DNA of 28,440 nucleotides. Origin: Candidatus Rifleibacteriota bacterium. GTDB taxonomy: Bacteria; Muiribacteriota; Ozemobacteria; Ozemobacterales; Ozemobacteraceae. The notes beneath the pieces are model-generated. The model searched no databases. It had not been told where the DNA came from and saw only the letters and a program-made list of their open reading frames with translations. Below are positions 5,435 to 26,500 of the stretch, in pieces (within the stretch, counting starts at the first letter, position 1; the number at the start of each line of letters is the position of its first letter). The stretch covers positions 64,001 through 92,440 of the forward strand of contig JANJUX010000012.1 in assembly GCA_024710355.1 (NCBI GenBank), written 5' to 3'. A program made the position numbers and the translations under genes.

Positions 5435-5539
5435 GCCTTTTTTGCCGGTTCTGTTTTTTGGCAGGTTTTATTTGAATCTGAGTGCCAAAAAAGGTTATAG
5501 TTAGAGCAATACATAGAAAGTTTCAAGTTCTGCAAAGTC

Positions 5540-6619
5540 ATGTCATGCTTTAAGCGGCAGTTAACCTGCTTTCGCCCGCGCAACAGCGGTTTCGTTTTTC
5601 CGCTGATTCTTTTTGCATCCCTGGCGGTCGGCCTGTTTATTCTGACGCTTACCCAGTATCAATCAGCGAATCGAGTCAAGCTTCAGCATCTCAACGACTA
5701 CCAGGGTGCATTTAACATCGCCTGGTCGGCACTTGTCGAAGTGCTGGCCGACATTCAGGCGAAGCAGTGGAGCAACCGTTCTTTTAAATCCGGGCCGAAA
5801 GACAAGTCTGCCAGCCTGTTCGGCGGCAGTTACAATCTCAGGGTGGCTGACCATGATGTGGCGCAGTATCTGTTCAATGTTAAAGTCAGGGTGAGCTTTA
5901 AAAACAAAAATCACCTGTTCTACTGGCGCATGAAATACAACCCGAATTTGCTCGATTTTACCAATCTTTTCATACCTGTCTGCTATGATGACATGCTCGA
6001 TGAGCCTGGTGCGGCGCCTGGCGATATCGATGCAATCGTCGATGATATGCTCGAAACCCGTGAAGAGAACCGTGAGAAGGCCGAAGAGATCGCCAAAGCC
6101 ATCAAAGCGACGCCGACTCTTAAGGAGGCACTGCAAAAAATCGGCATCAAACCCGACAAAGTCAAGGATGCCGACAAGCCAAGACCAGCGCCCCCAACGG
6201 TGCCGACTGCGCCGACTCCGCTGACGCTGAAAGATATCGCGGCCCTGGCTACCGGTGCTGACCCTGAAGTGGTCTTTGCAATCAAAGATTTTCATTTTGG
6301 TGGTGACGTCGCAGTGCTTACCGAAGAACAGAAAGACCTGCTCGACGCTATGGCTAAAATTCTTGCCGACCGGCCCGAGATTAAAATCGAGCTGCGTGGC
6401 CATACGACCGGTCTGGTTGGTACCGCCGAAAGCAATCTTGAATTCTCGATTCAGCGGGCACAGAACGTGGCCGACTATCTTATCAGTGTTGGTATTGCAT
6501 CTGAAAGGCTCACAGTTAAAGGTTTTGGTCGCGATAAACCGCTCGCCAGCAACGACACAGAGGCCGGTCAGACGAAAAACCGCCGCGTCGAATTCGTTCT
6601 TTCATCCACATCAAGTTAG
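5540..6619 (+). CDS. OmpA/MotB-like peptidoglycan-binding protein with N-terminal TM helix and Pro-rich linker.
   Basis: C-terminal OmpA-like domain (TAESNLEFSIQRAQNVADYL...GFGRDKPLASNDTEAGQTKNRRVEFVL). The linker is KPRPAPPTVPTAPTP, and the N-terminal hydrophobic helix is FVFPLILFASLAVGLFIL. Confidence 0.8.
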   Translation: MSCFKRQLTCFRPRNSGFVFPLILFASLAVGLFILTLTQYQSANRVKLQHLNDYQGAFNIAWSALVEVLADIQAKQWSNRSFKSGPKDKSASLFGGSYNLRVADHDVAQYLFNVKVRVSFKNKNHLFYWRMKYNPNLLDFTNLFIPVCYDDMLDEPGAAPGDIDAIVDDMLETREENREKAEEIAKAIKATPTLKEALQKIGIKPDKVKDADKPRPAPPTVPTAPTPLTLKDIAALATGADPEVVFAIKDFHFGGDVAVLTEEQKDLLDAMAKILADRPEIKIELRGHTTGLVGTAESNLEFSIQRAQNVADYLISVGIASERLTVKGFGRDKPLASNDTEAGQTKNRRVEFVLSSTSS

Positions 6620-6651
6620 TTACAGCCGCAGCGGAGTTTGGGTTACCGACT

Positions 6652-7224
6652 ATGAAAAATCGATCTGACAGAAGTTCTTTAACGGCCGCAAGTAGCGGTT
6701 TTACGGTATTGGAACTCGTGGTTGTCGTCGGCATAATGGCTCTGCTGGCGGCAATGGTATTCGGCATGTTTTCTACGACCAGTTCCAACCAGCAGAAGGT
6801 TTCGACCGACATGCAGATGCAGGCAATGATACTTAACTCGCAAAATCGCATCGTAAGAGCGGTCAGAGAAGGCATCGATTTTATTCTGCCCGAACTTGGT
6901 GAAGAGTCGGCTGCCCTCTTTTTTGCTGACAGTGAAAATAACATCAGGGTGCTCTATCAGCAGAAAGACGAAGAACTGTCAAAACGCACCGGCAAAACTT
7001 TGTACAAGCTCGTTCATCAAAAGGTTGAAACGAAAGGCTTTAATAGCAGCAGCCCGGCATCTGACCCGAAAATGTCGTCGACGGTTGCCGAGTATGTTAA
7101 AGACATCAAATTTCGCGTTTCAAGCGCCAATACGGTCAATGTTACCGCCAGTTTTGCGACCGAGCGCGCCGAATTTCAGACAATGTTCGAGATTGGCCTG
7201 CAGAATTCGGGAGTTGTTGAATGA
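6652..7224 (+). CDS. Prepilin-type N-terminal cleavage/methylation domain protein (pseudopilin / type IV pilin-like), 190 aa.
   Basis: Class III signal: charged leader, then G|FTVLELVVVVGIMALLAAMVF (G-F-T-x-x-E motif followed by a hydrophobic helix). Confidence 0.8.
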   Translation: MKNRSDRSSLTAASSGFTVLELVVVVGIMALLAAMVFGMFSTTSSNQQKVSTDMQMQAMILNSQNRIVRAVREGIDFILPELGEESAALFFADSENNIRVLYQQKDEELSKRTGKTLYKLVHQKVETKGFNSSSPASDPKMSSTVAEYVKDIKFRVSSANTVNVTASFATERAEFQTMFEIGLQNSGVVE

Positions 7225-8498
7225 ACCAGCGAGCAAACCGTGGTATGACACTGCTTGAACTGCTGATCGGCTTTTTTCTGCTGGTTTCGGCCTCGATTAT
7301 TTTTTTTCAGGCCATGCACAGCTTTAAAAAAGAAACCACCTTTACTTCGGAAAATTTCCTCGCGGCTTCTCTGACTGAAAAAGTGCTCGAGCAATGCTAC
7401 CAGGAGGCCGACCTGAACCCGCATGGCCTGCAGGCAATCGGTCTGGCCGATGCCGACGGCGCGCTCTACCCGTTTTCGACCTTTGTGACTGACAGAGAGA
7501 CAATTTTCTTTTCGAACCCGGGCATAACCGACACCGAAACCCCTAATCTACACAAGGTTCTCAAAGAAAATTTCAACCTCAAGGTGTCTGGTGAGAAGAA
7601 ACCCGGGTTTTATGAAATCAACGCCGGTTTTAACTGGAAAGCTGGTTCAGGCAAGGGCGGTTCGTTTGCCTCTACCCGTATTCTCTCGTTCACCGGCGAA
7701 AAGGAAGTGCTGACCACCTTCGCTTTGTCGGATACCGAGGTGAAAAACCGCCTGGTAAAAGATGTGTTCAACGCGCCCGGTGCCGCCCTCGGCAGCAAAG
7801 TCAGCAGTGCCGGTGCCGAAAAACTGCTGCTCAGCGTCGGGCATGTCTATTACACCTGCCTCGACTGGTTGAATTCTTCCGAGTTCAAAGACCGCTATCA
7901 GAAAGCCCGCAGCCTCGAAATTATTTCGTCACCTGCATCTGAAGACTATGCTGACTGCACCCGCATGTATTTTGAGCTCGCCAGAGACATGCTGCATCTT
8001 ATGATGAGTCTGAAAGGGCATGCAGAAGAGGCGGGCAAAGACATCAGCTTTCTTGCCGCCCTTCCGAAAACTGAGAAATACATCGTCGAGAGTCGTATCG
8101 AACGCGGTGGCCTGTTTTATCGCCAGCTGCGCCGTCTTTTCTTCAATTGCCTTTTCAGGGTTGCTGAGCGTTACGAGCAGCAGAGCAGGCATTCCGGGTC
8201 GCCAAAGCAACAGCGCCAGCTGATTGTGCGGCTGTTCAACATCAACCGGATTCTCTATGCCAATCGCAGCTTCAGCGATGAGGTTCCGGCAGCTGAGATC
8301 GAAAGCCGTTACCGCGATTTCATCACGAGAATGCAGACGGCGTTTCGTGATGCCGACCCTTCGATTTTTCGCCTTGCCGACCAGGAAAAGACGTTTATCA
8401 CCGCCGGCAATCTCAAAGACCGCTTTTTCATGTTGAAGTTGACCGGCGAGCTTTTTGCCACCATCGATAAATTTCTGACGGTTCTCGACCCGGCCTAA
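7221..8498 (+). CDS. Large prepilin-type N-terminal domain protein (minor pseudopilin-like), 425 aa.
   Basis: MNQRANRG|MTLLELLIGFFLLVSASIIFF matches the prepilin peptidase motif. Its start overlaps the upstream pseudopilin stop (ATGA), implying translational coupling. Confidence 0.75.
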   Translation: MNQRANRGMTLLELLIGFFLLVSASIIFFQAMHSFKKETTFTSENFLAASLTEKVLEQCYQEADLNPHGLQAIGLADADGALYPFSTFVTDRETIFFSNPGITDTETPNLHKVLKENFNLKVSGEKKPGFYEINAGFNWKAGSGKGGSFASTRILSFTGEKEVLTTFALSDTEVKNRLVKDVFNAPGAALGSKVSSAGAEKLLLSVGHVYYTCLDWLNSSEFKDRYQKARSLEIISSPASEDYADCTRMYFELARDMLHLMMSLKGHAEEAGKDISFLAALPKTEKYIVESRIERGGLFYRQLRRLFFNCLFRVAERYEQQSRHSGSPKQQRQLIVRLFNINRILYANRSFSDEVPAAEIESRYRDFITRMQTAFRDADPSIFRLADQEKTFITAGNLKDRFFMLKLTGELFATIDKFLTVLDPA

Positions 8499-8520
8499 AG
8501 GTTTTCTGCCAGACAAAAAT

Positions 8521-8547
8521 ACCCGGCCTTCACATTCCGGGCCGGGT
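8521..8547. terminator. GC-rich hairpin (ACCCGGCC / GGCCGGGT, 11-nt loop) between convergent genes. The T-tract is on the minus strand, so it most likely terminates the ALDH transcript.
   Basis: Perfect 8-bp stem. On the minus strand it is followed by ATTTTTG. The plus-strand tail is weak (TAAATAC). Confidence 0.45.
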
Positions 8548-8627
8548 TAAATACGCTTTAAGTGGCTGATGCGGTTATTTTCGCGTCAATACTTCACAGG
8601 ATGTCTTAAATGCGGCAATCAAGACGT

Positions 8628-10250
8628 TCAGAACAGAAAGTCGGTGGTCAGAAAGCTCGACAGGTCGTCTTTGAGAATTTTCGTGATCAGCTGCTTGTTG
8701 TCGTCACTGTCTTTGGCAGCGACCAGGGTTCTGATCGAGAAAACCCGCAGAGCGTCGGAGACCGAAAGGGTTCCTTCGGCTGAATCCTTGCGGCCGGTGA
8801 ACGGAAAGGTGTCGGGGCCGCGCTGGCACTGGCTGTTGATGTTGACGCGGCAGACCTGGTTAACCAGCGGGTCGATCAGTGAAGCCATCTGCTTCGCATC
8901 CTTGCCGAAAATACTGACCTGCTGGCCATAATCCGATTCGACGACATAGCTGATCGCTTCTTCGATCCGATTGTAGGCTGCAATCGGTATGACCGGGCCG
9001 AACTGTTCTTCGCGATACAGTTTCATTTTATCGTTCACCGGGTAGACAACGGCGGGAAAGAACAGAGAGTCGGAGAAAACGCCGCCCGAAGGGTTGACGA
9101 TTCTGGCGCCGTTTGCCTGGGCATCTTTGATAAGATCGGTAAGGCGCTCTGCTTTGCCGGGCTCAGCGAGCGGAGTAATCTGGGCGCCCTTTTCCCAGGG
9201 CAGGTTGATCTGCAGCTTTTCTACTTCGGCCGAGAATTTTGCCAGAAACGCATCGGCAATTGAAGAATGCACAAAGATCATTTTCAGGGCGGTGCAGCGC
9301 TGGCCATTGAATGACAGACTGCCGAGAAGGCATTCTTTTACCGCCAGGTCGATATCGGCATCCGGAAGAATGATGCAGGGATTCTTGGCATCGAGACCGA
9401 GCACGCAGCGCAAGCGGTGCGGTTTCGGGTGTGATTTGCGGATAACGTCAGAAACACGGCTGGTGCCTATAAAAGCCAGAACATCGACTTTGCCTGAAGC
9501 CATCATCGGTGTGATTACGGTCTGGCCACTGCCATAAACCGTATTGATTACCCCTTTCGGAAATGAATCGCGAAAAGCTTCGAGCAGCGGCTGAAAAAGC
9601 AGCACGCCGAGTTTCGGCGGCTTGAAAACGACAGTGTTGCCCATGATCAGGGCAGGGATCAGCGTCGTAAAAGTTTCATTGAGCGGGTAATTGAACGGGC
9701 CCATGCAGAGTACGACGCCAAGGGGCGCCCGCCTGATCTGGCCGATGATCTTCTGCTGAATGGTAAAGCGCGATGAAGTGCGGTCGAGCTCTTTCAGAGC
9801 TTCGACCGTGTCGCGGATATAGTCGATGGTGCGGTCGAATTCCTTCTGGGCATCGGCAAGGTTTTTGCAGATTTCCCACATCAGCAGGTTGACGACGCGG
9901 TCACGGCAGCCGAGCATGCGCTCGACAAAATTCTGAACGTGCCTGATGCGTTCACCAACCGACATTGTCGGCCATTTTCCCCGACCGTTGTCATAGGCCG
10001 CAGCCGCTGCATTCAGAGCCTCGGTGGCGGCCTGTTCAGACATGCTTGGCACGCTGCCGAGTTTTACCTGTTCAGGCGCGTTGCCATTTCTGATTCTGAC
10101 CGGCGAACTGATTTCCTGCATCGGGCCCTGCCACTGCCGGATTTCTCCATCGATCAGATATTCGCGCTGTTCGATCCGCGGTGCTTTGAACTCAGTCGGA
10201 ATATTTGCATCCTGCGGGAAAAGGGCCGCAAGGGTTTCGCTTTTCAACAT
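8628..10250 (-). CDS. NAD(P)-dependent aldehyde dehydrogenase family protein.
   Basis: ALDH signatures: catalytic Cys motif FNGQRCTALK, EEQFGPV, and the LGLDAKNP glutamate-box region. It is 540 aa, and GGAGGAACCCG precedes the ATG. Confidence 0.9.
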   Translation of the reverse strand: MLKSETLAALFPQDANIPTEFKAPRIEQREYLIDGEIRQWQGPMQEISSPVRIRNGNAPEQVKLGSVPSMSEQAATEALNAAAAAYDNGRGKWPTMSVGERIRHVQNFVERMLGCRDRVVNLLMWEICKNLADAQKEFDRTIDYIRDTVEALKELDRTSSRFTIQQKIIGQIRRAPLGVVLCMGPFNYPLNETFTTLIPALIMGNTVVFKPPKLGVLLFQPLLEAFRDSFPKGVINTVYGSGQTVITPMMASGKVDVLAFIGTSRVSDVIRKSHPKPHRLRCVLGLDAKNPCIILPDADIDLAVKECLLGSLSFNGQRCTALKMIFVHSSIADAFLAKFSAEVEKLQINLPWEKGAQITPLAEPGKAERLTDLIKDAQANGARIVNPSGGVFSDSLFFPAVVYPVNDKMKLYREEQFGPVIPIAAYNRIEEAISYVVESDYGQQVSIFGKDAKQMASLIDPLVNQVCRVNINSQCQRGPDTFPFTGRKDSAEGTLSVSDALRVFSIRTLVAAKDSDDNKQLITKILKDDLSSFLTTDFLF

Positions 10251-10440
10251 CGGGTTCCTCCATTTTTGTCAACGACAGCTGTAATCTTTAAGTCTGGTTT
10301 TTGCGATTTTAACTGACCGCCGGGTGCCAGTCCAATTTATTCGCAGCGACCCGTTCAAAGCTTGATTTTGTAACCTGAAACCATGTAGTCATCCTTGCCG
10401 AGGTGGTGAATGGTCTTCGGTTCAGAAATTTCCGGGTCGA

Positions 10441-11073
10441 TTATTTTGTTTTCGGATTGAGTTCTTTGACCAGATCAGACCGCTTCGGCCATGGCTGAAA
10501 ACCGTATCTGGGGCCGGGGCATGCTTCATTGATATATCTGATAAGATTGTTGGGCCTGGGGAAATGTGCCATCGGCACAATTTGCGAACCGACGAAGGCA
10601 TTGAGTGCCTCCGAGTCTTCGAGGCCATCGTCACGCGCCGCTTCAAGGCTTGCTTCCAGTTCCTGTGGACTGAACAGAGGTTTTTCCCATGGCTGCTGCT
10701 CACCTTCAGCGACCAGCCACATAAAATCTCCCCATTGCAGGTTTCTGACCAGACTGCCGTTGCTCCAGGCAGCATAAATTCCTGAGGTGAGACCTCCGTC
10801 GATCAGATAAAAAGCTATTACCTCGCCAACCTGTGCCGACAGCTCGGCAAGTTCTTTTGCAATGGCCGGATCTGAAGCTTCAACCCACATTGGCGGGTAA
10901 TCGGTGCGGTTCCAGCGGTCAACGACCGCAAACTGATGCACGGCCGGGTCGCCACCGAGAACCTTTAACGGACTGAACTCTTTCCCGGCGGCTCTGGCCT
11001 TTTTGATTGCCTCTTCAAGGGCTTCGATGCCTCCGTCAGGAAATTTTGCGTAAACTGCTCCGTCACAATCCAT
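10441..11073 (-). CDS. Hypothetical cytoplasmic protein (no recognised domain).
   Basis: Long ORF with a strong RBS (AGGAGG) 7 nt before the Met at 11073 (MDCDGAVYAKF...). The track ORF starts further upstream at 11142 without an RBS. Confidence 0.6.
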   Translation of the reverse strand: MDCDGAVYAKFPDGGIEALEEAIKKARAAGKEFSPLKVLGGDPAVHQFAVVDRWNRTDYPPMWVEASDPAIAKELAELSAQVGEVIAFYLIDGGLTSGIYAAWSNGSLVRNLQWGDFMWLVAEGEQQPWEKPLFSPQELEASLEAARDDGLEDSEALNAFVGSQIVPMAHFPRPNNLIRYINEACPGPRYGFQPWPKRSDLVKELNPKTK

Positions 11074-11329
11074 ATTTCTGTCCTCCTGTGGCGTCTGCCG
11101 CCCTGTTTCTGTTTTTATGCAGCGCCACCAATTTAATACCAATTTAGCTTACCTTTTCTGCCTCGACAAGAAAAATGAGCATCCAACCAGTCTGGTTCCT
11201 TGTCGAAAATGGATTCGAGGACAGGCCGCCGAAGCAGGGAGCTTGAATCTTTATTGCCGAGCCTGCACTGCAATAGAAAAAAACTGCAACTCAAATGCAG
11301 TAATGGTCCGGAAGAATGATCTGCAAAGT

Positions 11330-11358
11330 TTGACAATTACAATTAAATTGAATACAAT
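11330..11358 (+). promoter_or_regulatory. Sigma70-type promoter TTGACA-N17-TACAAT driving the GPx-OhrR-rSAM operon.
   Basis: Exact -35 TTGACA at 11330-11335, a 17-nt spacer, and -10 TACAAT at 11353-11358. The ATG lies 30 nt downstream, with a TAAGGAG RBS. Confidence 0.6.
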
Positions 11359-11368
11359 TTAATTGTAA
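11337..11368 (+). promoter_or_regulatory. OhrR-type operator: perfect 14-bp inverted repeat TTACAATTAAATTG-AATA-CAATTTAATTGTAA overlapping the spacer and -10.
   Basis: I verified the inverted repeat by reverse complement. It closely resembles the AT-rich TACAATT-AATTGTA operators bound by OhrR in Bacillus (established knowledge). An OhrR homologue is encoded two genes downstream. Confidence 0.6.
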
Positions 11369-11387
11369 TAAATCGTAAGGAGCTGCT

Positions 11388-11957
11388 ATGAATATTTATG
11401 AATTCACGGTTAAAGATATACATGAAAACCCGGTATCGCTGCGTGACTATCAGGGGCGGGTGCTGCTGATTGTCAACACTGCCACCGGCTGCGGGCTGAC
11501 CCCGCAGTATGAAGGCCTTGAAAAGCTTTATAAAAAATATCATGACCAGGGATTCGAAATTCTCGATTTTCCGTGCAATCAGTTTCTTAACCAGGCTCCA
11601 GGCACCGGCGAAGAGATTGCCAGTTTCTGTCAGCTCAAATACGGCGTGTCGTTCCGCACTTTCGGTAAAGTCGAGGTAAATGGCGACAAAGCCGATCCGC
11701 TGTATGTTTACCTCAAACAGCAGGCGCCGGCCGATGTTGAAAATGCCGAGGCCGGAGCATTCAGGCAGATTCTTGTAAAACTCGCTCAGACGGTTGCCGG
11801 CAGCGGTATCAAATGGAACTTTACCAAATTTCTGATCGACCGCCAGGGCAGAGTGGTTACCCGGTTCGCTCCGACGGTTAAGCCCGAAGAACTTGAAGCT
11901 GCCATTGTTAAATTGCTGCCGCAGGAGAAAAAATGTGAAAAAGCCGGCGAAAGATAA
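11388..11957 (+). CDS. Glutathione peroxidase family (Cys-type, BtuE/Gpo-like).
   Basis: LLIVNTATGCGLTPQY ... FEILDFPCNQF ... FCQLKYGVSF ... VNGDKADPLY, which are canonical GPx blocks with the peroxidatic Cys. Confidence 0.9.
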   Translation: MNIYEFTVKDIHENPVSLRDYQGRVLLIVNTATGCGLTPQYEGLEKLYKKYHDQGFEILDFPCNQFLNQAPGTGEEIASFCQLKYGVSFRTFGKVEVNGDKADPLYVYLKQQAPADVENAEAGAFRQILVKLAQTVAGSGIKWNFTKFLIDRQGRVVTRFAPTVKPEELEAAIVKLLPQEKKCEKAGER

Positions 11958-12420
11958 ATTTGCCGCATTAAGGCTTGATAATCAGCTGTGTTTTCCGCTT
12001 TATGCTGCTTCGAGGCTGGTGATCAAACTTTATAAGCCTTTTCTGGATCGGCATGGGCTGACTTATACTCAGTATATTGCGATGATGGCACTCTGGGAAA
12101 AGGATAATGTCGCGGTAAACGAACTGGGAGAGCGCCTTTTTCTCGATTCCGGCACCCTGACGCCGCTTTTGAAAAAACTCGAAACTCTCGGTTTTATCAG
12201 AAGAGAGCGCGATGCCGCCGACGAACGCACAGTGCGCATTCAACTGACCGGCCAGGGAAAAATGCTGCAGAAAACCATGTGCGATGTTCCCAGGCAGATG
12301 GCCGCCTGCGTTCATCTCGGCAGAGAAGAAGCCGGCAACCTGCATGAACTTCTCCACAATCTCATCAGAAATCTGAGCAGCACTGACGGCCGCAAAAACA
12401 GCCGGCCCGGTATTTTCTGA
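11893..12420 (+). CDS. ohrR: MarR-family organic hydroperoxide resistance regulator OhrR (2-Cys type).
   Basis: LDNQLCFPLYAASR (reactive Cys), QYIAMMALWE, and LDSGTLTPLLKKLETLGFIRRERDAADER are strongly OhrR-like. The likely true start is the GTG at 11935, which has AGGAG upstream; the ATG at 11893 gives a 14-aa extension. The stop overlaps the next ATG (TGATG). Confidence 0.85.
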   Translation: MKLPLLNCCRRRKNVKKPAKDKFAALRLDNQLCFPLYAASRLVIKLYKPFLDRHGLTYTQYIAMMALWEKDNVAVNELGERLFLDSGTLTPLLKKLETLGFIRRERDAADERTVRIQLTGQGKMLQKTMCDVPRQMAACVHLGREEAGNLHELLHNLIRNLSSTDGRKNSRPGIF

Positions 12421-14054
12421 TGCGGGCGGCACTGATTTTTCCGCCACAGTGGGATCCGCGGCAGCCGCCGCTGGCGCCGTCAATTCTCGCTGGCACCATG
12501 CGACGTGCCGGTGCCGATACCCGGGTATTCGATCTGAATGTCGCTTTGTACCGCCATCTGCTTCTATCACACGAGCCAGGAGGAATCGGGAGTTTTCTGC
12601 TGCAGAAACTGCTCGATCCGAAGAATCTGGTCGATGTACAAAGCTATCTGCGTATCAGTCAGGAAGCCCAGAAAATTTTCGATTCAGAGTTCGATCCGGC
12701 AGGCCGGGCGCGCTTGTTCTGGGATGCCTGCGGCGGGCTGCCATCGGTTAGTTCTTCTGCAGGCTGGAAGATAGCTGCAGAGAAACCGGAAAAGCTGCCG
12801 TTCATCGGGCATCTTGGCAAAGAACTGGCCGAAATACTGAGCTGGTCATCCGACTTCATTGGTTTTTCGATAATATCAGATACGCAGTTGCCGGCAGCGT
12901 TGGCTCTGGCGGCATTTATGCGTAAACGTCTGCCGGCTGCGAAGATTGTTTTTGGTGGTGACGCTGTTACTTACCGGCGCCGCCTTCTCACTAGTCAGGG
13001 CTGGCTTGGCTCGATAATCGATGCGGTCTGTCTTGGTGATGGCGAGCCGTTTGTCACAGCCGCTGCCAAGGGCATGAGTCCTGCCGGTTCGCCGAATTCT
13101 TTGAGCTGGGAGGTTGCCGGGCGCAGCTGTGGCGTGCAACAGTCTCTGCATGATTTTTCAAATTCAAGCCCGGCCGAATTTTCGGCTCTGCCGCTGCATG
13201 ACTATCTGACTCCGCATCTGGTAATGCCGGTAGAAACAGCCAGGGGCTGCCCATGGGGCAGATGTGCATTCTGCATCCATCCTGTGCGGGCGGCGAGCGG
13301 CCGACCATTGTACCGGCCGCGTTCCATGGCTGCCGTCACCGAAGAAATTGAAACCCTTTTTGCGGCCGGGCATCGTCGGTTCTTTATTGTTGATGAAGCT
13401 TTGCCGCCTGCGCGTCTGCGTGAGCTGGCAGAAATTTTTGCCGCTCTGCCTGAACCGGTTTTCTGGATCGGTTATGCCCGCCTCGACGCCGGGCACACTC
13501 TTGAAGGCTTTTTGCGGGCCCGCGCTTCGGGGTGTCTGAAACTCTTTATTGGTCTTGAGACAGGATCAGATCGTATTCTTGCCAGATTCAACAAGGGTGT
13601 CGATCGGGCGCAGACCCGCCGGGTGCTGCTCGACGCTGCTGCTGCCGGCCTCGCGGTGCATACATTTCTGATGACCGGGTTTCCGGGCGAAGATGCGTCG
13701 GATCGGCAGGCGACCCTCGATCTGCTTGCCGATGTCTGGCCGGCCTTTGCCCCATTCGGAGTATCGTTCGATCTGTTCGCGCTGACCGGCGAACTCGAAA
13801 CTGAAATGGCTGCCGATCCAGCATCCTTCGGGTGGGAAGGCCCGAAATTTGACGGGCGTAACGATCTTGCCTGGCAGTTTCCGCTGCTTACGGGTCCAGC
13901 TGCGGCCGAAACGCTGGCCGAATTCAGAGCCAGCCTGCACAGCCTTGCCGACAGGGTTCTGGGCAGAGAGTTTGGTTTGCGTCACGCCGCCCTGGCCCAG
14001 GATTCCCTGCATCTGCTGCTGCTCGAAGCAAAAACCAGTCTGCGTCGGCCATAA
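12420..14054 (+). CDS. B12-binding-domain radical SAM protein (class B rSAM, methyltransferase-like), 544 aa.
   Basis: N-terminal Rossmann/B12-like region (KIVFGGDAVTY). The Cys cluster is ARGCPWGRCAFC, a CX4CX2C variant. The radical SAM core has IGLETGSDRILARFNKGVD and MTGFPGED, typical of the B12-binding rSAM family. Confidence 0.8.
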   Translation: MRAALIFPPQWDPRQPPLAPSILAGTMRRAGADTRVFDLNVALYRHLLLSHEPGGIGSFLLQKLLDPKNLVDVQSYLRISQEAQKIFDSEFDPAGRARLFWDACGGLPSVSSSAGWKIAAEKPEKLPFIGHLGKELAEILSWSSDFIGFSIISDTQLPAALALAAFMRKRLPAAKIVFGGDAVTYRRRLLTSQGWLGSIIDAVCLGDGEPFVTAAAKGMSPAGSPNSLSWEVAGRSCGVQQSLHDFSNSSPAEFSALPLHDYLTPHLVMPVETARGCPWGRCAFCIHPVRAASGRPLYRPRSMAAVTEEIETLFAAGHRRFFIVDEALPPARLRELAEIFAALPEPVFWIGYARLDAGHTLEGFLRARASGCLKLFIGLETGSDRILARFNKGVDRAQTRRVLLDAAAAGLAVHTFLMTGFPGEDASDRQATLDLLADVWPAFAPFGVSFDLFALTGELETEMAADPASFGWEGPKFDGRNDLAWQFPLLTGPAAAETLAEFRASLHSLADRVLGREFGLRHAALAQDSLHLLLLEAKTSLRRP

Positions 14055-14101
14055 TGGCTGTTACAGACTGGTTGAGGTGTCGAAAAAAGAATCAGATTGA
14101 G

Positions 14102-14968
14102 TCAGTCTTCCCCGTTATCAACAGGGGATTCTGGAATCATTTCGTTGGCGGTATCGTCGTCGAATTCACTGGAAAAATCGAAAACGGCATCAGGAAAACG
14201 TTTTCGCAGCTCTTCCTGGTCTTTGAGCTTCAATGCCGCATTGCCCATGGCAATATTGAGGCCTTTCAGATTTTTAAGTGAATCAGGCAGTCTGGTACCG
14301 CCGTTGGAGTTGATTGTAAGGTTTTTCAGATTCTTAAGATTGCCGACAAACTCTGGCAGTTCTTTGATGCCGTTATAATCCAGATTCAGGGTGACAAGTT
14401 TTGCAAGAGAGGCAACCTGCGGCGGCACTTCATTGAGCCCGTTTCTGCCAATATCGAGAACTTCAAGATTTTGAAGAGCTCCCAGAGCCTGCGGCAGCTT
14501 TTTTGCCTTAACCGGTTCGCCTTTTTCGTTTTCCATAATACCCGAAGCGTCGAAAGCCCCGTAGAGACGCAGAATTTTCAGCTTCTCAAGACCGGCAATC
14601 GTTTCAGGCAGCGAGACATTCATCTGGTAGCCATTGCCGTTGTCGATAACGATGCTTTCAAGGTTCTTGAGATTGCCGAGTTCCTTTGGCAGTTCTTCCA
14701 GTGCTTCAAGGCCGCCGATATTCAGTTCTTTCAGATTGGTCAGGCTGCCAAAGGCTTCGGGCAAAAGTTTCAGAGAAAAGTCCGGGTTGTTTTCTTCGAC
14801 CGGTTCAGCCGCATCTTCCTGATATACTGCCCCAAGATCCAGTCTTGTAGCTTTTTCGGGGTTAGCCAGGGCCTCTGACAGATGTTTGTATGTTTCGGCC
14901 TGTGCTGAAACCGAAGAGCCGATTGCAAAAGCGATAAGCAGAGCACATACCTGTTTTAGTGAAGGCAT
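14102..14968 (-). CDS. Secreted leucine-rich repeat (LRR) protein.
   Basis: Signal peptide MPSLKQVCALLIAFAIGSSVSAQA. Repeated LxxLxxLxLxxN units follow (LTNLKELNIGG, LGNLKNLESIVIDNG, LQNLEVLDIGRNGL, LAKLVTLNLDYNGI, VGNLKNLKNLTINSNG). RBS AGGAG is present. Confidence 0.8.
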   Translation of the reverse strand: MPSLKQVCALLIAFAIGSSVSAQAETYKHLSEALANPEKATRLDLGAVYQEDAAEPVEENNPDFSLKLLPEAFGSLTNLKELNIGGLEALEELPKELGNLKNLESIVIDNGNGYQMNVSLPETIAGLEKLKILRLYGAFDASGIMENEKGEPVKAKKLPQALGALQNLEVLDIGRNGLNEVPPQVASLAKLVTLNLDYNGIKELPEFVGNLKNLKNLTINSNGGTRLPDSLKNLKGLNIAMGNAALKLKDQEELRKRFPDAVFDFSSEFDDDTANEMIPESPVDNGED

Positions 14969-14973
14969 GATAA

Positions 14974-15750
14974 TTACTCCTGATCGTTATAGGTTTTCCA
15001 ATATGGTTCCATGTCGATGCCGGCCGCTTTGCACGCAGATTCAAACACGTTCGCCTGGTCTCCGAGAACCATTTTTTCAATGATGGGGCCGGCTTCCATT
15101 GCGTTGGCGTCGGTTTCGTGGCCATTGGCGCGCCAGACCTGTTTGATCTGCTGTATGAGGGCGATTTTGCCGGCTTCGTCGAGGAGCTGCCAGTCGAAAA
15201 TATCTTTCGTCACAAGGTTTTTGACGTGCTCCTTGTCGAGTTTCGGGGCGTTGTCTGCCTTTTTGGCAGGTTCTGCCGCCGGTGCTTCAGAGCCTTCGAG
15301 CGGGTCGGTAATTGATTCGCAGATCATCGGGCCGGTACTGGCGTCATCGGCCGGCGAAATGCACATGAATACCGGTCCTGAGGGCTCTTTATATTTGAAC
15401 AGGATGCCTCTGGCATCGTCAGAAACCACGGTAGTCAGCGGCGATTGCAGCTGCAGGCCCTTGACCTGCCCAAAGCTCACCTGTGGCTGGCACACGGAAA
15501 ACACATTCGTGACCTTGTTATTTTCGTAGCCAAGCATTCCCATCATCAGAAAATCGGGAGAGTCTGAGATGAGCCAGGTGTCGAGCTCGCCTGCATCAGC
15601 TGGTTTGCCGAGCATTTTGTGAGCTTCTTCTCTGGAAACCCCAATAAAGCTGGTTTCGGTCCAGAATTTCGCCGTAATTGCTTCGGCACTGCCGGCTGCG
15701 ATAATTAACAGAACGAAGACGAGAATGATAATACTGTTGCGGTTTTTCAT
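14974..15750 (-). CDS. Hypothetical secreted protein (signal peptide, no known domain).
   Basis: MKNRNSIIILVFVLLIIAAGSAEA signal peptide. RBS AAGGAA. It lies 5 nt upstream of the LRR gene. Confidence 0.6.
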   Translation of the reverse strand: MKNRNSIIILVFVLLIIAAGSAEAITAKFWTETSFIGVSREEAHKMLGKPADAGELDTWLISDSPDFLMMGMLGYENNKVTNVFSVCQPQVSFGQVKGLQLQSPLTTVVSDDARGILFKYKEPSGPVFMCISPADDASTGPMICESITDPLEGSEAPAAEPAKKADNAPKLDKEHVKNLVTKDIFDWQLLDEAGKIALIQQIKQVWRANGHETDANAMEAGPIIEKMVLGDQANVFESACKAAGIDMEPYWKTYNDQE

Positions 15751-15755
15751 TGATT

Positions 15756-16400
15756 TTATTCCTTGTTATCTGTGGGAGTGGCTGATTCTGAGGCAACAGG
15801 TGTGGCTTCGTCGGCAACGATTTCGGTCGGAAGATATTCGACGAGAATGTGGCGTTCATCCTGAGCTTTGATCAAAGCTGAGAACTTACCGGCGACGCTT
15901 ACTTCTTCACCGGCTTTTTCCCATTCTGCGGGAGTTGCATGTACATCGGGCGTGCCACCTGAACCGGTGCTGTAAATGGTGCCGCTGGCTTTGAAGGTGT
16001 CACTGCCAATGTCTTCGAGCGTGTCGAGCTGTGAGAAAACAAACATATCGCCATCGGCAACCGGTATTGAATATAATTTTTCCTTGTGCTGCGAAGGCTT
16101 CTGCCCGAAGTATTTTATCGCTGCCGTGTCAACCTGCTCAGTGGTCGCCGTGACATAATACCCGTCTTTAGAGGGTTTCAGCGATTTGAATTTGTTGAGA
16201 TACAGGTGCCGAAGAGCAAAGTCGATCATCGCCTGGTCGGTCAACGCACCCTGCGAAAAGCTTGCCACATGGGCTTCAGAGAAGTTGCTGAAAAATACGT
16301 TCAGGTTCTTCTGCAGAGCCGGTTCGAGCTGCATCGGCTCTGCCAGACCCATCGAGGCCACGGTCATTATTACTGCCAGTAAAGTCAGGATTTTTCTCAT
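15756..16400 (-). CDS. Hypothetical secreted protein.
   Basis: MRKILTLLAVIMTVASMGLAEP signal peptide. RBS GGAGA. The gap to the next gene is 5 nt. Confidence 0.6.
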   Translation of the reverse strand: MRKILTLLAVIMTVASMGLAEPMQLEPALQKNLNVFFSNFSEAHVASFSQGALTDQAMIDFALRHLYLNKFKSLKPSKDGYYVTATTEQVDTAAIKYFGQKPSQHKEKLYSIPVADGDMFVFSQLDTLEDIGSDTFKASGTIYSTGSGGTPDVHATPAEWEKAGEEVSVAGKFSALIKAQDERHILVEYLPTEIVADEATPVASESATPTDNKE

Positions 16401-16438
16401 TGAATTCTCCGTTTCAGATCATACTGTAAAGGTTCTGA

Positions 16439-17008
16439 TCACTTCGCCGACAGCGGAACGATGGTGAAGGAATAGGCGGTATCTTCACCATCACCACCGG
16501 TTCGCAGCGTAAATTTCCAGCCCTGGTGTTCCCATACGGTGTTTTGGTAGCCTTCTTCTTTTTCGCCGTCTTTGCCGGCTCCGGCATTTTTTTCAAGCCA
16601 TGTCTGCAGTTCTTTGTTCGGAACTTCTTCGCCGTCGATGCAGATTTCGGCGATTTTACCGGCTTCGTCCCAGTCGATGATAAGGGCTACCGGAGCTGAT
16701 TCGGTTTCGATCTGGAAATCATACTGCAGTCTGCTCGCTTCTTCCATTTCGGCAGCTTCGCCGAGAATCGGCGTCAATTTGGCAGCCAGGTCATCGCGAG
16801 TGGCGTCTCTGCCGATGAAGACTTCGGTTCCCTTCAGCATCAGCGGAAATTCTGCCGTGGCGCTGGCGACATCAGCTGTGACTGCGGTTGTTGATGCAGT
16901 TTCTACTGCTGCGGCTGCGGCGGGTTTGACTTCGACTCCGGCAAAGCTCTGACAGGCTGCTGCCACGATGAATGCGAGAGCGACGGTTGTGAATCTGGTG
17001 TTGATCAT
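16439..17008 (-). CDS. Hypothetical secreted protein with an Ala/Thr-rich linker.
   Basis: MINTRFTTVALAFIVAAACQSFAG signal peptide. RBS TGGAGAAAAAAAT. Confidence 0.6.
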   Translation of the reverse strand: MINTRFTTVALAFIVAAACQSFAGVEVKPAAAAAVETASTTAVTADVASATAEFPLMLKGTEVFIGRDATRDDLAAKLTPILGEAAEMEEASRLQYDFQIETESAPVALIIDWDEAGKIAEICIDGEEVPNKELQTWLEKNAGAGKDGEKEEGYQNTVWEHQGWKFTLRTGGDGEDTAYSFTIVPLSAK

Positions 17009-17049
17009 ATTTTTTTCTCCATGTGAAATTTTGTCAGCTGTATCTGCTG

Positions 17050-17790
17050 TTATTGCTGCGCCGGGGTGAATTTGCCGCTGATCGCCATATAGCGGAAGTT
17101 CGGGCCTTCAAAGCCGGGGCTGGTGTAAGAAACGATCACGACAATGCCGTCTTTGCAGCTGGTTACCCGGCGAACCTGGTAAGAAAGCGGATAGGCGCGG
17201 CTTTTTGGCAGACGCTTGTCTTCCTGAAGAATCTGTATGGTCCCGGAAGCTTCTTCAAGACCGGCAATCGACAGTTTGAGCATTTTTGCCGGGCCAAAAT
17301 CAGTCGGCATATCTTTGATGGCAGGTGTTGTGTCAGTGGTTTCGAGCCTGACTTCATATTTTGCGGTGATACCTGAGGCTCCGCCATCGATGCCGGGCGT
17401 CAGAGAGAAAATATTGCCGGTAAATGGGCTGTGGTCGGTCGGCAGGTGTACCAGAAGGTCTGAACCCTGATTTTCATTGACTTTCAGTGCGAAGCGTTCG
17501 AGTCTGGCGGCTTCGATTGCTTTTTTGAGTGCCGGTTCGGCTGAGCCCGCCTCGATATCTTTGTCTTCGGTCAACTCGGTGGCGCTGGTGGCGACCTGCT
17601 CATTTTTCAGAACATCGATTACCCACAGTTCCGCATATGGAACCCCTGAGCCATCGTGGATACCCATCTGGGCAAAAGCGTAATACTGGCCTGATTGAGA
17701 GAAACCGAGCGGCCGGAATTCGGCAATATCGCCGGCCTGGCAGCTGGCAACAAAAAAGAACATGGCAAGGGTGACTAAAATGCGTTTCAT
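17050..17790 (-). CDS. Hypothetical secreted protein.
   Basis: MKRILVTLAMFFFVASCQAGD signal peptide. RBS AGGAGAAAATA precedes the Met at 17790. The track ORF extends to 17844 without an RBS. Confidence 0.6.
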   Translation of the reverse strand: MKRILVTLAMFFFVASCQAGDIAEFRPLGFSQSGQYYAFAQMGIHDGSGVPYAELWVIDVLKNEQVATSATELTEDKDIEAGSAEPALKKAIEAARLERFALKVNENQGSDLLVHLPTDHSPFTGNIFSLTPGIDGGASGITAKYEVRLETTDTTPAIKDMPTDFGPAKMLKLSIAGLEEASGTIQILQEDKRLPKSRAYPLSYQVRRVTSCKDGIVVIVSYTSPGFEGPNFRYMAISGKFTPAQQ

Positions 17791-17810
17791 TATTTTCTCC
17801 TGGGGTGTGA

Positions 17811-18500
17811 TTATTTTCCGGGTCTGAATTCGATCAGTCGGCAATTGACTTCGCTGGTGGTTCCCTGATGTGAATAGATGTAGCCGGTAAAACCGACGCC
17901 ATGGGTAAATTTCCAGGTGGTTGTGTCCGGGCCGGTAGACAGGCTGATCGAAACTTCGTCGGGAGTGCCGGTAAGCTTCAGACCTTTTACCGCTGCGGCA
18001 GAAAACGGTGTTTTGCCTTCAACCCGGTAAACATACATCGGAATGCCCGAAAGCAGCTGCGCAGTTTCGCCGAAGGTTTTTTCTTCTACCAGCGGAAAAT
18101 CGAGCAGCAGATCAGCTTCGGTAACCGATTCGCCCAGGCTCTCGCCGGTGATGGCCTTTTCCCAGACCTCTTTGATTCTCTCGTCGCCCTGAATCAGATA
18201 GAGCCGCCAGGGCCCGGCCAGAATCATCAGAAATGGTGACGGTTTTTTGCCTTTTTCATAAAAGGTCAGGTCGCTCGGCAGGCCAGAGCCTTTTGCAAAA
18301 GTAATGTTTTCCCAGGCGGTTACCGAGGTTATTTCGGTTGTCCAGGTGAGGGTTTCGCTCAGTTCTTTGCCTTCAGAATCGGCTTTGACGTCGGCGCTGT
18401 AGACCCATGCGGTGCCGGTTGCCAGCTGCAGCGGCAGGCTTTCGGCTGCCGTTACGGTGAGGGAAATAAGACAGAAAATGACAATAAGAGCGTGTTTCAT
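17811..18500 (-). CDS. Hypothetical secreted protein (first gene of the secreted-protein operon).
   Basis: MKHALIVIFCLISLTVTAAESL signal peptide begins at the internal Met at 18500, with AGGA upstream. The longer track ORF (to 18713) has no signal-peptide logic. Confidence 0.6.
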   Translation of the reverse strand: MKHALIVIFCLISLTVTAAESLPLQLATGTAWVYSADVKADSEGKELSETLTWTTEITSVTAWENITFAKGSGLPSDLTFYEKGKKPSPFLMILAGPWRLYLIQGDERIKEVWEKAITGESLGESVTEADLLLDFPLVEEKTFGETAQLLSGIPMYVYRVEGKTPFSAAAVKGLKLTGTPDEVSISLSTGPDTTTWKFTHGVGFTGYIYSHQGTTSEVNCRLIEFRPGK

Positions 18501-18890
18501 AGGTTTAATCCTGCTTTTGGAGTAATTGTCCTGGCGGTGTCCTGCTAAAAACCGGAAAACTGGCTGGTTTATTTTGTGTACCCTCTGATCCTCTCTAAGA
18601 TTATGAAAAATATCACAAACTTCGCAAAGGTTCAAGTTTTTGCTCTTTGACTTTTCAAAGCCAGTTCTGATGCGAATCGGAGCGGTCGATTTTTCGTGTA
18701 AAGCTCGTTGCAAAGCTTGGTCAGGCGCAGCGGCAATTTATGTCATGGTTAAGGGTGGCCCGGCGCTCTGTGCGTAAAAATCAGTTGGTGAATCATTGCC
18801 GATCTGATAGACTCAGGTTTCACATACGGGGCTGTAATTGCCTGGATTTTTTGTGGGAACCTGTATTTTCGAACAAAAGGGGACATAAAG

Positions 18891-19487
18891 ATGAAAAGAA
18901 ATTTCAATCACCTGATTCTTGCAGTATTACTCGCTTTTACCGCACCGGGCTTTGCCGGCGAAGTTAAGCCGGCTGATGCTGCCGGGCAGCCGGTGACCGA
19001 ACAGGCCGCTGTAACTGAACAGGCTGCTGTAAATCAGGAAACCGACATCGATATAAATAACCCGATTGAAAAAGCCTTCGCCAAAGATTTTGAGATGGCC
19101 CAGGCCACCCCGGAAATCAATTATGTGAACGAAGCTTATCTCGAAGCCTGGAAGGCGGAGATGGCCAATGCCGCCGCAGTTGTTAAAAAATCACTGCCAC
19201 ATCAGGATGACGGCAAGCGGGTTGATGAGTATGTTGCCGTCGGCAGCGCTCTTGCAGACAAAGCCTTTGAACTTGAAATGCTCAACTGGATTTCAGACCC
19301 CGAAGCGCCGATTGCCGACCGTTCTTTCGGAACCGGCGCCACCGGCGGTGCCATGCTTGCTCAGGCCAGAGTCTATAAACAGGTGACTTTGAATCTGATC
19401 ACGCATTATCAGGCAAATCCAGATATGGCTTATTCCTTTATCTACAGCGGCAAAGGCGCCGATCTCGAAAAACTCAGAGCACAATAA
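18891..19487 (+). CDS. Hypothetical secreted protein. It is divergent from the secreted operon and has a short tandem repeat PVTEQAAVTEQAAV.
   Basis: Signal peptide MKRNFNHLILAVLLAFTAPGFAGE. RBS AAAGGGGA. Confidence 0.6.
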   Translation: MKRNFNHLILAVLLAFTAPGFAGEVKPADAAGQPVTEQAAVTEQAAVNQETDIDINNPIEKAFAKDFEMAQATPEINYVNEAYLEAWKAEMANAAAVVKKSLPHQDDGKRVDEYVAVGSALADKAFELEMLNWISDPEAPIADRSFGTGATGGAMLAQARVYKQVTLNLITHYQANPDMAYSFIYSGKGADLEKLRAQ

Positions 19488-21435: not shown

Positions 21436-22089
21436 ATGGACATCTCAAACTATCAAGGCATTATCTTTGACCTCGACGGAACTCTTCTCGATACCCTGAC
21501 CGATCTCGCCGATGCGACGAACCGGGTGCTGGCGCGCCACGGCTTTGCAACGCATCCTGCCGCTGCCTACCGCTATTTCGTTGGCGATGGTATGCGCATG
21601 CTCGTCGAACGCGCCTTGCCGCCAGAACAGAGGGTTGCTGCGGTTATCGACGCGGTTTTTTTAGAGCTGCATGCCGATTACGGGGAAAACTGGGCCGTGG
21701 CCACCAGGCCATACGCGGGCGTGGTCGAACTGCTGGCCGGGTTGCAGCAGCGTGGCATAGTCATGTCGGTTCTTTCGAACAAACCCGATGAATTCACCGG
21801 CATCATGGTCAGAAAATATTTCCCTGACATCCCGTTTAAATGCATCTATGGCCTCAGTGAGCGGGTTGCGAAAAAACCTGACCCGTCCGGGGCACTGCGC
21901 ATTGCCACCGAAACTGGCATAAAACCAGAACAGACACTGTATCTTGGCGATACTCTTGTAGATATGAAAACGGCCGTCGCTGCAGGCATGTTTTCGATTG
22001 GCGCTCTGTGGGGTTTTCGCGATGAAACCGAACTGCGCGCCGGCGGCGCAAAACTTTTGCTGCAGCACCCGATGCAGTTGTTTGCTTAA
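21436..22089 (+). CDS. HAD-IA family hydrolase (phosphoglycolate phosphatase-like).
   Basis: Motif I IIFDLDGTLLDT. Motif II SVLSNK. Motif III/IV K...GDTLVDMKTA. Confidence 0.85.
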   Translation: MDISNYQGIIFDLDGTLLDTLTDLADATNRVLARHGFATHPAAAYRYFVGDGMRMLVERALPPEQRVAAVIDAVFLELHADYGENWAVATRPYAGVVELLAGLQQRGIVMSVLSNKPDEFTGIMVRKYFPDIPFKCIYGLSERVAKKPDPSGALRIATETGIKPEQTLYLGDTLVDMKTAVAAGMFSIGALWGFRDETELRAGGAKLLLQHPMQLFA

Positions 22090-22748
22090 TTGTCCAGGCT
22101 TTCTTTTTCGACGGTTTTTTTGAGCAGCTGACACAGTTCGAGAGCTTCTCTGGCAAGAGTTTCAAAATCAGGTGCCCATTCCAGCCGACCCTTGTGAAGA
22201 AACAGGGTTGAGCCGACGCCTTCGATCTGTGCCGCAGAACCGGCATAGCGCATCACGAAATTTCGAACCTCATTGTTGAAAAGATACCTTGCCAGAACTT
22301 CATCTTTGCTCTGCAATACAAAGGCCTTCGAAAACGGCAGATCTTCTTCGAAGTTGATATCCTGCATATCAAAAAAACGCCCGATACCGTCAGAAAGACT
22401 GTCTTCATATCTTAAATAAAAACTCGGCAGATTCATGCGGTAATCGATGATCAGGCAGGTCGTCGCGGCGCGCACCGAACCATCTTTGGAATAGTGAAGA
22501 TCAGCAATTTTAATTTCAACGTCTTCATCTTTTTTTGAAAAACAGTTCGAGGCGCTTACTGCGCGGCACAGATAATTACTCTTTTTGACGATGCGCAAAA
22601 AGTCCGCATCGCTTTCTTTGAAGGCAAAACCGAGTTTTTCGGCAGTCGCCTTCAGCGATTTCGTTCTCTCGCGGCGATATTCCCGCCGTTGCACTAAAAT
22701 CCACACGACAAACACTAAAAGCATCAAATACGGAAGAATATAGAGCAA
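22086..22748 (-). CDS. Hypothetical membrane-anchored protein (single N-terminal TM).
   Basis: MLYILPYLMLLVFVVWILV hydrophobic N-terminus followed by a soluble domain of unknown function. The 3' end overlaps the convergent HAD gene by 4 nt. Confidence 0.55.
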   Translation of the reverse strand: MLYILPYLMLLVFVVWILVQRREYRRERTKSLKATAEKLGFAFKESDADFLRIVKKSNYLCRAVSASNCFSKKDEDVEIKIADLHYSKDGSVRAATTCLIIDYRMNLPSFYLRYEDSLSDGIGRFFDMQDINFEEDLPFSKAFVLQSKDEVLARYLFNNEVRNFVMRYAGSAAQIEGVGSTLFLHKGRLEWAPDFETLAREALELCQLLKKTVEKESLDN

Positions 22749-25892: not shown

Positions 25893-26117
25893 CTTCTGAA
25901 AAAATGTCACAAAACATAATTGGGGAGCCGGGAAGTTACAACTGCAGAAGTTTCGGTTTCAATGCATAGTTTGAATTTGTCATTTTTATGAATATTTCAG
26001 AGGATTTTACCTGTAAGAAAACAGCGCTATTCTTAAATTACCACCAGAAGAAGCGCTTTAGCTGCAACCAGGCATTTAAAAAGCGCTGAAAACGATGAGG
26101 TGGAAGGAGGAAGGCGT

Positions 26118-26444
26118 ATGAATATTAGAAACTGGCTGTTTTTGGGGGTTTGCGCAATTGCTGTCGCGGGAGTCTTTCTGATTGTCGGTTGTTGCAAAAA
26201 GACCGGCATTGTTGAAAATCCGGCGGCCGGCCCTGCTGAGAAGGCCGGGGCCGCACTGGATAAGGCCGTCAAAACGACAGGTGAAGAGGCCGGAAAGCTT
26301 GCAGAAAAGGTAAATACAGAGGCCAGAGAAGCTGCCGGCAAGGCGATCAACAAAACCGGTCAGGCTCTTGAAAAAGCTGGTGACGGCCTGGCAAAAACTG
26401 GTGCAGATCTGCAGGAGAGCCTGGGTAATGCAATAAACCCATGA
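26118..26444 (+). CDS. Small lipoprotein with Lys/Ala/Gly-rich amphipathic repeats (LEA/YtxH-like low-complexity).
   Basis: Lipobox LIVGC after a hydrophobic leader (MNIRNWLFLGVCAIAVAGVFLIVGC). Repeats EKAGAALDKAVKTTGEEAGKLAEKVNTEAREAAGKAINKTGQALEKAGDGLAKTG. RBS GGAGGAAGG precedes the Met at 26118. Confidence 0.6.
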   Translation: MNIRNWLFLGVCAIAVAGVFLIVGCCKKTGIVENPAAGPAEKAGAALDKAVKTTGEEAGKLAEKVNTEAREAAGKAINKTGQALEKAGDGLAKTGADLQESLGNAINP

Positions 26445-26500
26445 CAAGAAATTGCCCCGTTCGTTTCACGCATGTGGAGCAAATCAAAAAAGGAGTAAAA

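Follow-up and report, generated by a model that had tools for sequence, protein, structure and literature searches.

A conserved operon of small exported proteins in Candidatus Rifleibacterium, with a core of three gene families linked by fusions

A stretch of 28,440 nucleotides from a Candidatus Rifleibacteriota genome (GenBank assembly GCA_024710355.1, contig JANJUX010000012.1, positions 64,001 to 92,440; hereafter the window) contains a cluster of genes for exported proteins, six of which (g1 to g6) lie head to tail on the minus strand. In order of transcription these are g1 (17811-18500; 229 amino acids), g2 (17050-17790; 246 amino acids), g3 (16439-17008; 189 amino acids), g4 (15756-16400; 214 amino acids), which proves to be the hub of the cluster, the two-module gene g5 (14974-15750; 258 amino acids) and g6 (14102-14968; 288 amino acids), which encodes a leucine-rich-repeat (LRR) protein with an acidic C-terminal tail. 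A seventh gene, g7 (18891-19487, plus strand; 198 amino acids), is divergent from g1 across a 390-bp control region (18501-18890) with blocks conserved among relatives. A preliminary description of this DNA had seen a six-gene operon of exported proteins without known function, ending in the LRR protein, and had suggested that they form a periplasmic or cell-surface complex or a secreted toolkit. The open reading frame (ORF) listing and a direct reading of the minus strand place the six co-directional genes exactly 20, 41, 38, 5 and 5 nt apart. The true start of g1 (MKHALIV) lies inside a longer TTG ORF, and each of the six ATG codons is preceded at 6-10 nt by a Shine-Dalgarno-like GGAG, AGGAG or AGGA, the weakest being the AGGA of g1.

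All seven proteins (7/7) have a Sec-type N-terminus, according to a home-made heuristic that looks for a basic n-region, an uncharged h-region and an AxA-like cleavage site; the 10-residue Kyte-Doolittle mean of the h-region is 2.7-4.1, and a radical S-adenosylmethionine (radical-SAM) protein encoded next to the operon, used as a control, lacks these features. With their signals VASC (a possible lipobox) and AAAC, g2 and g3 might be lipoproteins instead. The mature products of the operon are all acidic. Pfam and NCBIfam scans of the seven proteins yielded no catalytic domain and matched only DUF2259 in g2 and LRRs in g6, PADLOC matched none of the seven, and the sole PHROGs match was the LRR region of g6. 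Since layout, signals and domain scans all agree, the preliminary description is correct as written on the six genes and their spacing, their individual ribosome-binding sites and signal peptides, the lack of recognisable catalytic domains, the terminal LRR gene and the divergent exported gene, which has an export signal as well. Its statement that all the proteins are unknown holds in that they are uncharacterised, except that g2 belongs to a named Pfam family. Protein Data Bank (PDB) sequence searches with single sequences (g1, g4, g5) and family profiles (g1, g2, g3, g5C, g7, where g5C is the C-terminal domain of g5), gave no credible match.

A putative sigma-70-type promoter on the minus strand (18607-18635), about 110 nt upstream of g1, emerged from an alignment of nine orthologous g7/g1 spacers. 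It consists of TTGAAC (18635-18630), a 17-nt spacer and an extended -10 element, TGaTATTTT (18615-18607), and the alignment, which includes spacers from the distant loci L006, L100 and L008, is most strongly conserved in its TTGAA and TG-n-TA blocks. A generic promoter scan found an overlapping candidate, with total matches not above those in shuffles. This TTGAAC-17-TGnTATTTT element probably drives the operon; no sigma-54 promoter was seen upstream of g1 by eye, no pattern search having been run. At the other end, a terminator-like hairpin (14028-14073, minus strand; 11-bp outer stem, minimum free energy -24 kcal/mol, z = -4.9 against shuffles) followed by UUUUU stands just after g6 and overlaps the 3' end of the convergent radical-SAM gene. 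The same hairpin sequence is found directly behind g5 in L001, a strain that has no g6. A generic scan, with a total count not above that of shuffled sequence, found no minus-strand terminator-like site between the genes. Gaps of at most 41 nt, the lack of an internal terminator beyond chance, the conserved promoter-like element and the terminal hairpin together suggest that g1 to g6 are co-transcribed.

A set of 170 loci (cited by L numbers) was searched with the window proteins and with iterated hidden Markov models. Most of the genes are co-conserved among them, so that the result which the preliminary description had said would refute it, a lack of co-conservation elsewhere, was not what we found. 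Wherever a Rifleibacterium-like locus is long enough to reveal the arrangement (L002, L003, L006-L008, L010-L014, L092-L102), its order is g7 / g1-g2-g3-g4-g5; in L097/L098, g7 is displaced to about 3 kb downstream, and in all other relatives it is divergent from g1. Among named relatives, a Candidatus Riflebacteria metagenome-assembled genome comes closest over the whole locus, with 60-74% protein identity for the seven operon proteins. The synteny of g7 / g1-g5 reaches down to protein identities of about 50% (L008, L100), at which synonymous positions have reached saturation (dS above 1.5 against L006 and L008). Every operon gene is under purifying selection, with ratios of nonsynonymous to synonymous substitution (dN/dS) of 0.06-0.21 against several orthologues, like the neighbouring hydrolase and radical-SAM genes. 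These values indicate that the genes are real, and they rule out diversifying selection of the arms-race kind. The window proteins belong to clusters, drawn at 90% identity or more, that carry the NCBI name Candidatus Rifleibacterium sp. One assembly that carries the operon, with locus tags MASR1M12_..., is labelled 'Erysipelotrichia bacterium', probably through taxonomic mislabelling or a binning error; the other named members are Candidatus Rifleibacterium sp.

The conserved unit is thus g7 / g1-g2-g3-g4-g5, and the idea of a fixed set of six genes does not survive the comparison: g6 is subject to insertion or deletion, g2 is lost in L097/L098, and g5 has lost its N-terminal domain in L091/L095/L096, loci that match the window at 97-100% in their g2 and g6 proteins. 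In these last three loci, a deletion of about 0.5 kb has removed the g5 signal peptide and N-terminal domain, fusing g4 in frame to g5C. Variation among close strains also takes the form of a tract of about 0.85 kb (15950-16800), covering the 3' part of g3 and most of g4, in which sliding-window DNA identity to L001-L003 falls to 83-93%. Its flanks, g7-g1-g2 on one side and g5-g6 on the other, are 100% identical to the same strains, which marks the tract as part of a recombination mosaic; dN/dS inside it is 0.14-0.21. In L096 and L101 the divergent block (88-92%) is g1 instead.

The most variable member of the operon is the LRR gene. The repeats of g6 score well above the family cut-offs (LRR_14, 90.1 bits against 40; LRR_4, 40.4 against 27; LRR_8, 39.7 against 27; three to four matched stretches each). 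The gene is present in L003, L012, L013, L006/L014, L091-L096 and L109 and absent from L001, L010, L008, L097/98 and L100; relative to L001, a strain whose DNA is identical across g1-g2, it is a clean indel. It is therefore a presence/absence accessory and the least conserved member, not the highlight of the set for which the preliminary description had taken it. Proteins with LRRs and a Sec signal are not unusual in environmental bacteria.

A secreted toolkit or surface adhesin set centred on g6, acting on other cells or on a host, would fit the export signals of all the products and the repeat type LxxLxxLxLxxNxLxxLPxxIGxLxxL, which g6 has in common with Leptospira LRR lipoproteins and adhesins such as LIC_11051 and with the Xanthomonas type III secretion system (T3SS) effectors XopL, XopAE and XopAC. 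The likeness is confined to the repeats: about 85 LRR residues align, the scores against XopAE, XopAC and XopL (78, 68 and 53 bits) are far below the equivalog cut-offs of 600, 450 and 500, and LIC_11051 is matched at 44.6 bits against a cut-off of 1000, so that g6 was rejected as a member of the effector families and as a fibronectin-binding protein of the Leptospira type. Unlike the Xop effectors, g6 carries a Sec signal instead of a T3SS signal and lacks any effector, E3-ligase or kinase domain; its presence in the locus varies, and several lineages that keep the rest are without it. The 28-kb window holds no secretion-system genes and no toxin gene, and the one habitat stated for a related record (L102) is an activated-sludge metagenome, with no host association indicated. 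We consider a toolkit of this kind very improbable, and this half of the preliminary proposal finds no support here.

At the centre of the cluster, g4 represents a new family that comprises 76 clusters at 90% identity, none of them (0) with a Pfam domain, and that also occurs in Deltaproteobacteria-like and other environmental genomes. In an alignment of 51 members, 18 columns are invariant and 36 nearly so, with a mean column identity of 48% across lineages; the motifs include an invariant FFSNFSE and an SGGTPDxH loop, and a low-complexity tail occupies residues 195-214 or so. The AlphaFold2 model (predicted local distance difference test, 87; core above 95) has three helices and a curved sheet of five to six strands, which we tentatively assign to the NTF2/cystatin-like alpha+beta rolls, the fold similarity being weak. 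Conserved polar residues (S38, N39, S41, E42, H65, Y67, D91, H105, Q124, D152, H154) could line a surface or pocket.

Such a pocket, made specific by the invariant polar residues and FFSNFSE, is what would be expected if g4 were itself a periplasmic NTF2-fold enzyme, or a small-molecule or lipid carrier like MlaC, SnoaL or ketosteroid isomerase, with the other genes of the operon as its substrates, chaperones or bystanders. The g4 family also has a far wider distribution than g1, g5 or g7, which would agree with such a role. Against this stand the weakness of the fold similarity, the absence of matches at E <=1 to MlaC, SnoaL or families related to them in Pfam and NCBIfam, and the absence of Mla, Lol or Lpt genes next to g4; with neither family match nor mla linkage, MlaC / Ttg2D in particular was discarded as an identity for g4. 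A self-sufficient enzyme or carrier is, in our view, possible but unlikely.

The strongest evidence that g4 does not act alone comes from gene fusions. In-frame fusions of g4 to g5C occur in L006/L099 (protein P0052), L008 (P0058), L100 and L091/L095/L096 (P0047), and in two independent cases, P0075 and L125, g3 is fused in frame behind g4. Every Rifleibacterium-like locus has g5C directly after g4, either fused to it or within g5, and L125 is the exception among operon-type loci in having g3 as the fusion partner of g4 instead of g5C. In 17 loci g3 adjoins g4, and these include the distant lineages L108, L110-L113 and L125, where the g3-like genes have 32-37% identity. No other evidence speaks as strongly as the Rosetta-stone fusions for joint physical action of g3, g4 and g5C. 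Of the proposed periplasmic or surface complex, the physical association therefore gains support for these three families, though not for all six genes.

The two partners of g4 are themselves orphan families. In g3, a signal peptide and an Ala/Thr-rich linker are followed by a domain of about 135 amino acids that has the motifs RLQYDF and GGxGEDxxY; the protein has no Pfam, NCBIfam or PDB sequence match. Proteins of the g5 type are rare (29 representative clusters among 1.84 billion proteins) and modular. The signal peptide and N-terminal domain (15301-15750, minus strand; residues 1-150) are dispensable, and elsewhere the N-terminal domain occurs alone or fused to Sel1 repeats (P0128), which was the only match in Pfam scans of distant g5 relatives. 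The C-terminal domain g5C (14974-15273, minus strand; residues 160-258, about 95 of which form the domain) has the motif DIFDW...GK...W...DQANIFExAC and is found elsewhere on its own after a membrane anchor or a lipobox, as tandem copies, or joined to g4; its family profile has no PDB match.

Outside the Rifleibacterium loci, g4-family genes typically lie among small exported proteins without a Pfam match. Same-strand neighbours of g4 in these loci are export-like in 65% of cases, compared with 24% among genes at a distance of at least four positions (Fisher p = 3e-7, calculated with a crude heuristic over non-independent loci). In L090, an unrelated metagenome contig, at least nine consecutive same-strand genes without a Pfam match surround a g4 homologue (4760-11086), and most of them encode small proteins with signal-peptide-like N-termini. 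Two of the L090 families recur beside g4, namely a protein of about 140 amino acids (10 loci) and one of about 130 (L089, L090); Pfam scans of the recurrent g4 partners in other lineages found nothing, and a first impression of a PPC-like domain in the former was dropped. Nine non-Rifleibacterium loci (L090, L123-L125, L127, L142, L156, L163, L170) have sigma-54-dependent response regulators of the NtrC type no more than about 3 kb from their g4 homologues, and in L009 one lies about 5.6 kb from g4; this proximity could be due to chance in genomes rich in such regulators.

Runs of small exported proteins like the nine in L090 raise the possibility that the operon encodes an array of inhibitors or immunity proteins that work independently in the periplasm, each directed against a different incoming enzyme such as a protease, a lysozyme or a competitor's injected effector, and that stay together in one operon for their common defensive purpose. 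Its products are indeed small, acidic, exported and devoid of a recognisable catalytic domain, and its content varies among close strains (the g6 indel, the g5 N-terminal deletion, the loss of g2 and the g3-g4 tract), as in orphan immunity islands of type VI secretion systems (T6SS), which likewise line up several small exported proteins. The locus differs from such islands in having neither a cognate toxin nor a match to a known immunity family: the window contains no toxin, T6SS or Rhs gene, and no Imm or PADLOC family was matched. Its genes are under ordinary purifying selection, g4 is very conserved, unlike arms-race immunity genes, and the fusions between members point to joint instead of independent action. 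The cystatin motifs QxVxG and PW are absent from both the translation and the conserved columns of g4, which speaks against a cystatin-type protease inhibitor. We regard an inhibitor array as doubtful, if worth keeping in mind.

The remaining members appear to be lineage-specific companions of the core. The g1 family, with 15 clusters at 90% identity among 5.8 billion proteins and no (0) Pfam domain, is restricted to Rifleibacterium-like genomes, where it is always the first operon gene; neither the single sequence nor a profile found a PDB sequence match. The g7 family is likewise lineage-restricted and highly conserved (76% mean column identity in an eight-sequence alignment; dN/dS 0.06-0.13), with the motifs EINYVNEAYLEAWKAEM and RSFGTGATGGAMLAQ, and has no match in Pfam, NCBIfam, PADLOC, PHROGs or, as a family profile, the PDB. 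A likeness to DUF1311 / LprI-type lysozyme inhibitors was not borne out for g7, which has no Pfam family at E <=1 and no PDB match.

DUF2259 (PF10016), annotated as a 'predicted secreted protein', is matched by g2 over its full length (90.2 bits against a gathering threshold of 25; residues 38-240 on profile positions 1-189 of 189), and g2 has the N-terminal secretion signal that goes with the family, with a basic n-region, a hydrophobic core and a CQA|GD site by our heuristic. Where g2 differs is in its setting. DUF2259 is embedded in this operon in the Rifleibacterium lineage alone and is a solitary gene in other phyla, with unrelated neighbours in Roseibium, Treponema, Fermentibacteria and Leptospirales; the housekeeping or membrane genes beside it in Roseibium and Treponema, as judged by eye, give no clue to its function. 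In L009 a divergent DUF2259 gene lies next to g4, and in L123/124 that position beside g4 holds merely a 34-residue g2-like match. A literature search on DUF2259 / PF10016 found nothing relevant in the library that it covered. The predicted structural model of DUF2259 is confident, and no solved structure is related to it; in the PDB sequence searches, the sole borderline match was one blade-length stretch against the designed propellers Ika8/Ika4 (E = 0.01).

Our favoured reading, held tentatively and at slightly less than even odds, is a lineage-restricted periplasmic or envelope complex built around g4 that acts by binding. In this model, a chromosomal Candidatus Rifleibacterium operon would be transcribed from the sigma-70-type promoter to the hairpin terminator, and the Sec pathway would export its acidic products across the inner membrane. 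There g4 would bind the g3 domain and the roughly 95-residue g5C through its conserved polar surface or pocket, forming a three-part core, g3-g4-g5C, that is periplasmic or envelope-associated. The g1, DUF2259 and g7 proteins would be lineage-specific partners travelling with this core, and the N-terminal domain of g5 and the LRR protein g6 optional add-ons. The complex would bind a ligand or another envelope protein rather than follow a known catalytic mechanism.

Several observations weigh against this complex. The support for interaction and for co-transcription is indirect, fusions are absent for g1, g2 and g7, and g2 can be missing altogether (L097/L098). The export calls for g1-g7 depend on the home-made heuristic, and a location in the periplasm, at the outer membrane or outside the cell is something that we infer. 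A non-catalytic role for g4 is not established, because its conserved polar residues also fit an NTF2-type enzyme. No operon family is related to any characterised complex, and profile-profile comparison (hhalign) of the six operon families gave probabilities of at most 1.5%, that is, no paralogy.

Families that are not related to each other might also be functionally unrelated exported proteins, sharing a transcript or neighbourhood in one lineage by descent alone. DUF2259 does stand alone by housekeeping genes in Roseibium, Treponema and other genera, and Riflebacteria are reported to exceed every other phylum in their density of novel gene families (PMC10849945). Mere shared descent is harder to reconcile with the independent in-frame fusions g4-g5C and g4-g3, with the adjacency of g3 and g4 in distant lineages and of DUF2259 and g4 in L009, and with an order and orientation kept at synonymous saturation (dS above 1.5 against L006 and L008). 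We judge it quite unlikely. A more ambitious variant of the envelope complex, which we hold to be unlikely but worth stating, is an undescribed periplasmic machine of g3, g4 and g5C, centred on the new NTF2-like family of g4, with DUF2259, g1 and g7 as lineage partners and with a specific biochemical role, for example as a carrier or sensor of a hydrophobic envelope ligand; if so, DUF2259 would be a new fold taking part in a complex.

The surroundings of the operon are those of an ordinary chromosome. Flanking genes encode a lipoprotein-type alpha/beta hydrolase, an aldehyde dehydrogenase, an OmpA-family protein, a two-component system, a BON-domain protein and a B12-radical-SAM enzyme that follows MarR and glutathione peroxidase. 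Neither integrase nor phage genes occur in the window, nothing stands out in its G+C content, and viral (IMG/VR) contigs yielded no relatives of g4 or DUF2259, so that an origin from a mobile element or phage was rejected; Rfam families and tRNAs are also absent from the window. The B12-binding radical-SAM gene (12420-14054, plus strand), whose best NCBIfam matches are sub-threshold hits to PhpK-type P-methyltransferases and to C-methyltransferases of ribosomally synthesized and post-translationally modified peptides, stays beside the exported-protein cluster in several relatives (L006, L010, L094, L096), convergent after g6 or g5 in most loci and upstream of g7 in L010. It is the last of three co-directional genes, after glutathione peroxidase (11388-11957) and MarR (11893-12420), whose stop overlaps the radical-SAM start. 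Just upstream of the glutathione peroxidase gene, at 11338-11370, lie 2.1 copies of a near-palindromic unit of 15-16 nt, TACAATTAAATTGTAA, which looks like a MarR operator.

A possible three-gene stress cluster (26100-27630, plus strand) comprises an Ala/Lys-rich, lipoprotein-like ORF of 114 amino acids (26100-26444), a 145-residue ORF (26441-26878) whose motif FNNWDP...HEYKFVVNGVW makes it a candidate for likeness to glycogen-binding or E-set domains, and a protein with three BON domains (26863-27630). Another five ORFs, 190-425 amino acids long and without a Pfam match, within 6652-8498, 10441-11142, 22086-22748 and 4721-5434, fit the high novel-family density reported for Riflebacteria.

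As Riflebacteria are reported to carry more novel gene families per genome than any other phylum (PMC10849945), it comes as no surprise to find uncharacterised genes clustered in one of their genomes, and the proteins described here are already in public databases as 'hypothetical', 'DUF2259' or 'LRR'. What lies at this locus is an operon for exported proteins of the envelope, based in part on a fold already known. New here are the definition of the conserved unit, the fusion evidence that links the three orphan families g3, g4 and g5C, the tentative fold assignment of g4, the lack of a solved structural relative for DUF2259, and the demotion of the LRR gene to an accessory. Should the conclusion drawn from the fusions be right, g3, g4 and g5C would gain their first functional link, and DUF2259, found in Roseibium, Treponema, Leptospirales and others, would gain its first candidate partners. 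In other respects this is one among many uncharacterised envelope operons, with no tie to a long-standing open question. The locus also offers testable hypotheses of protein-protein interaction in Riflebacteria.

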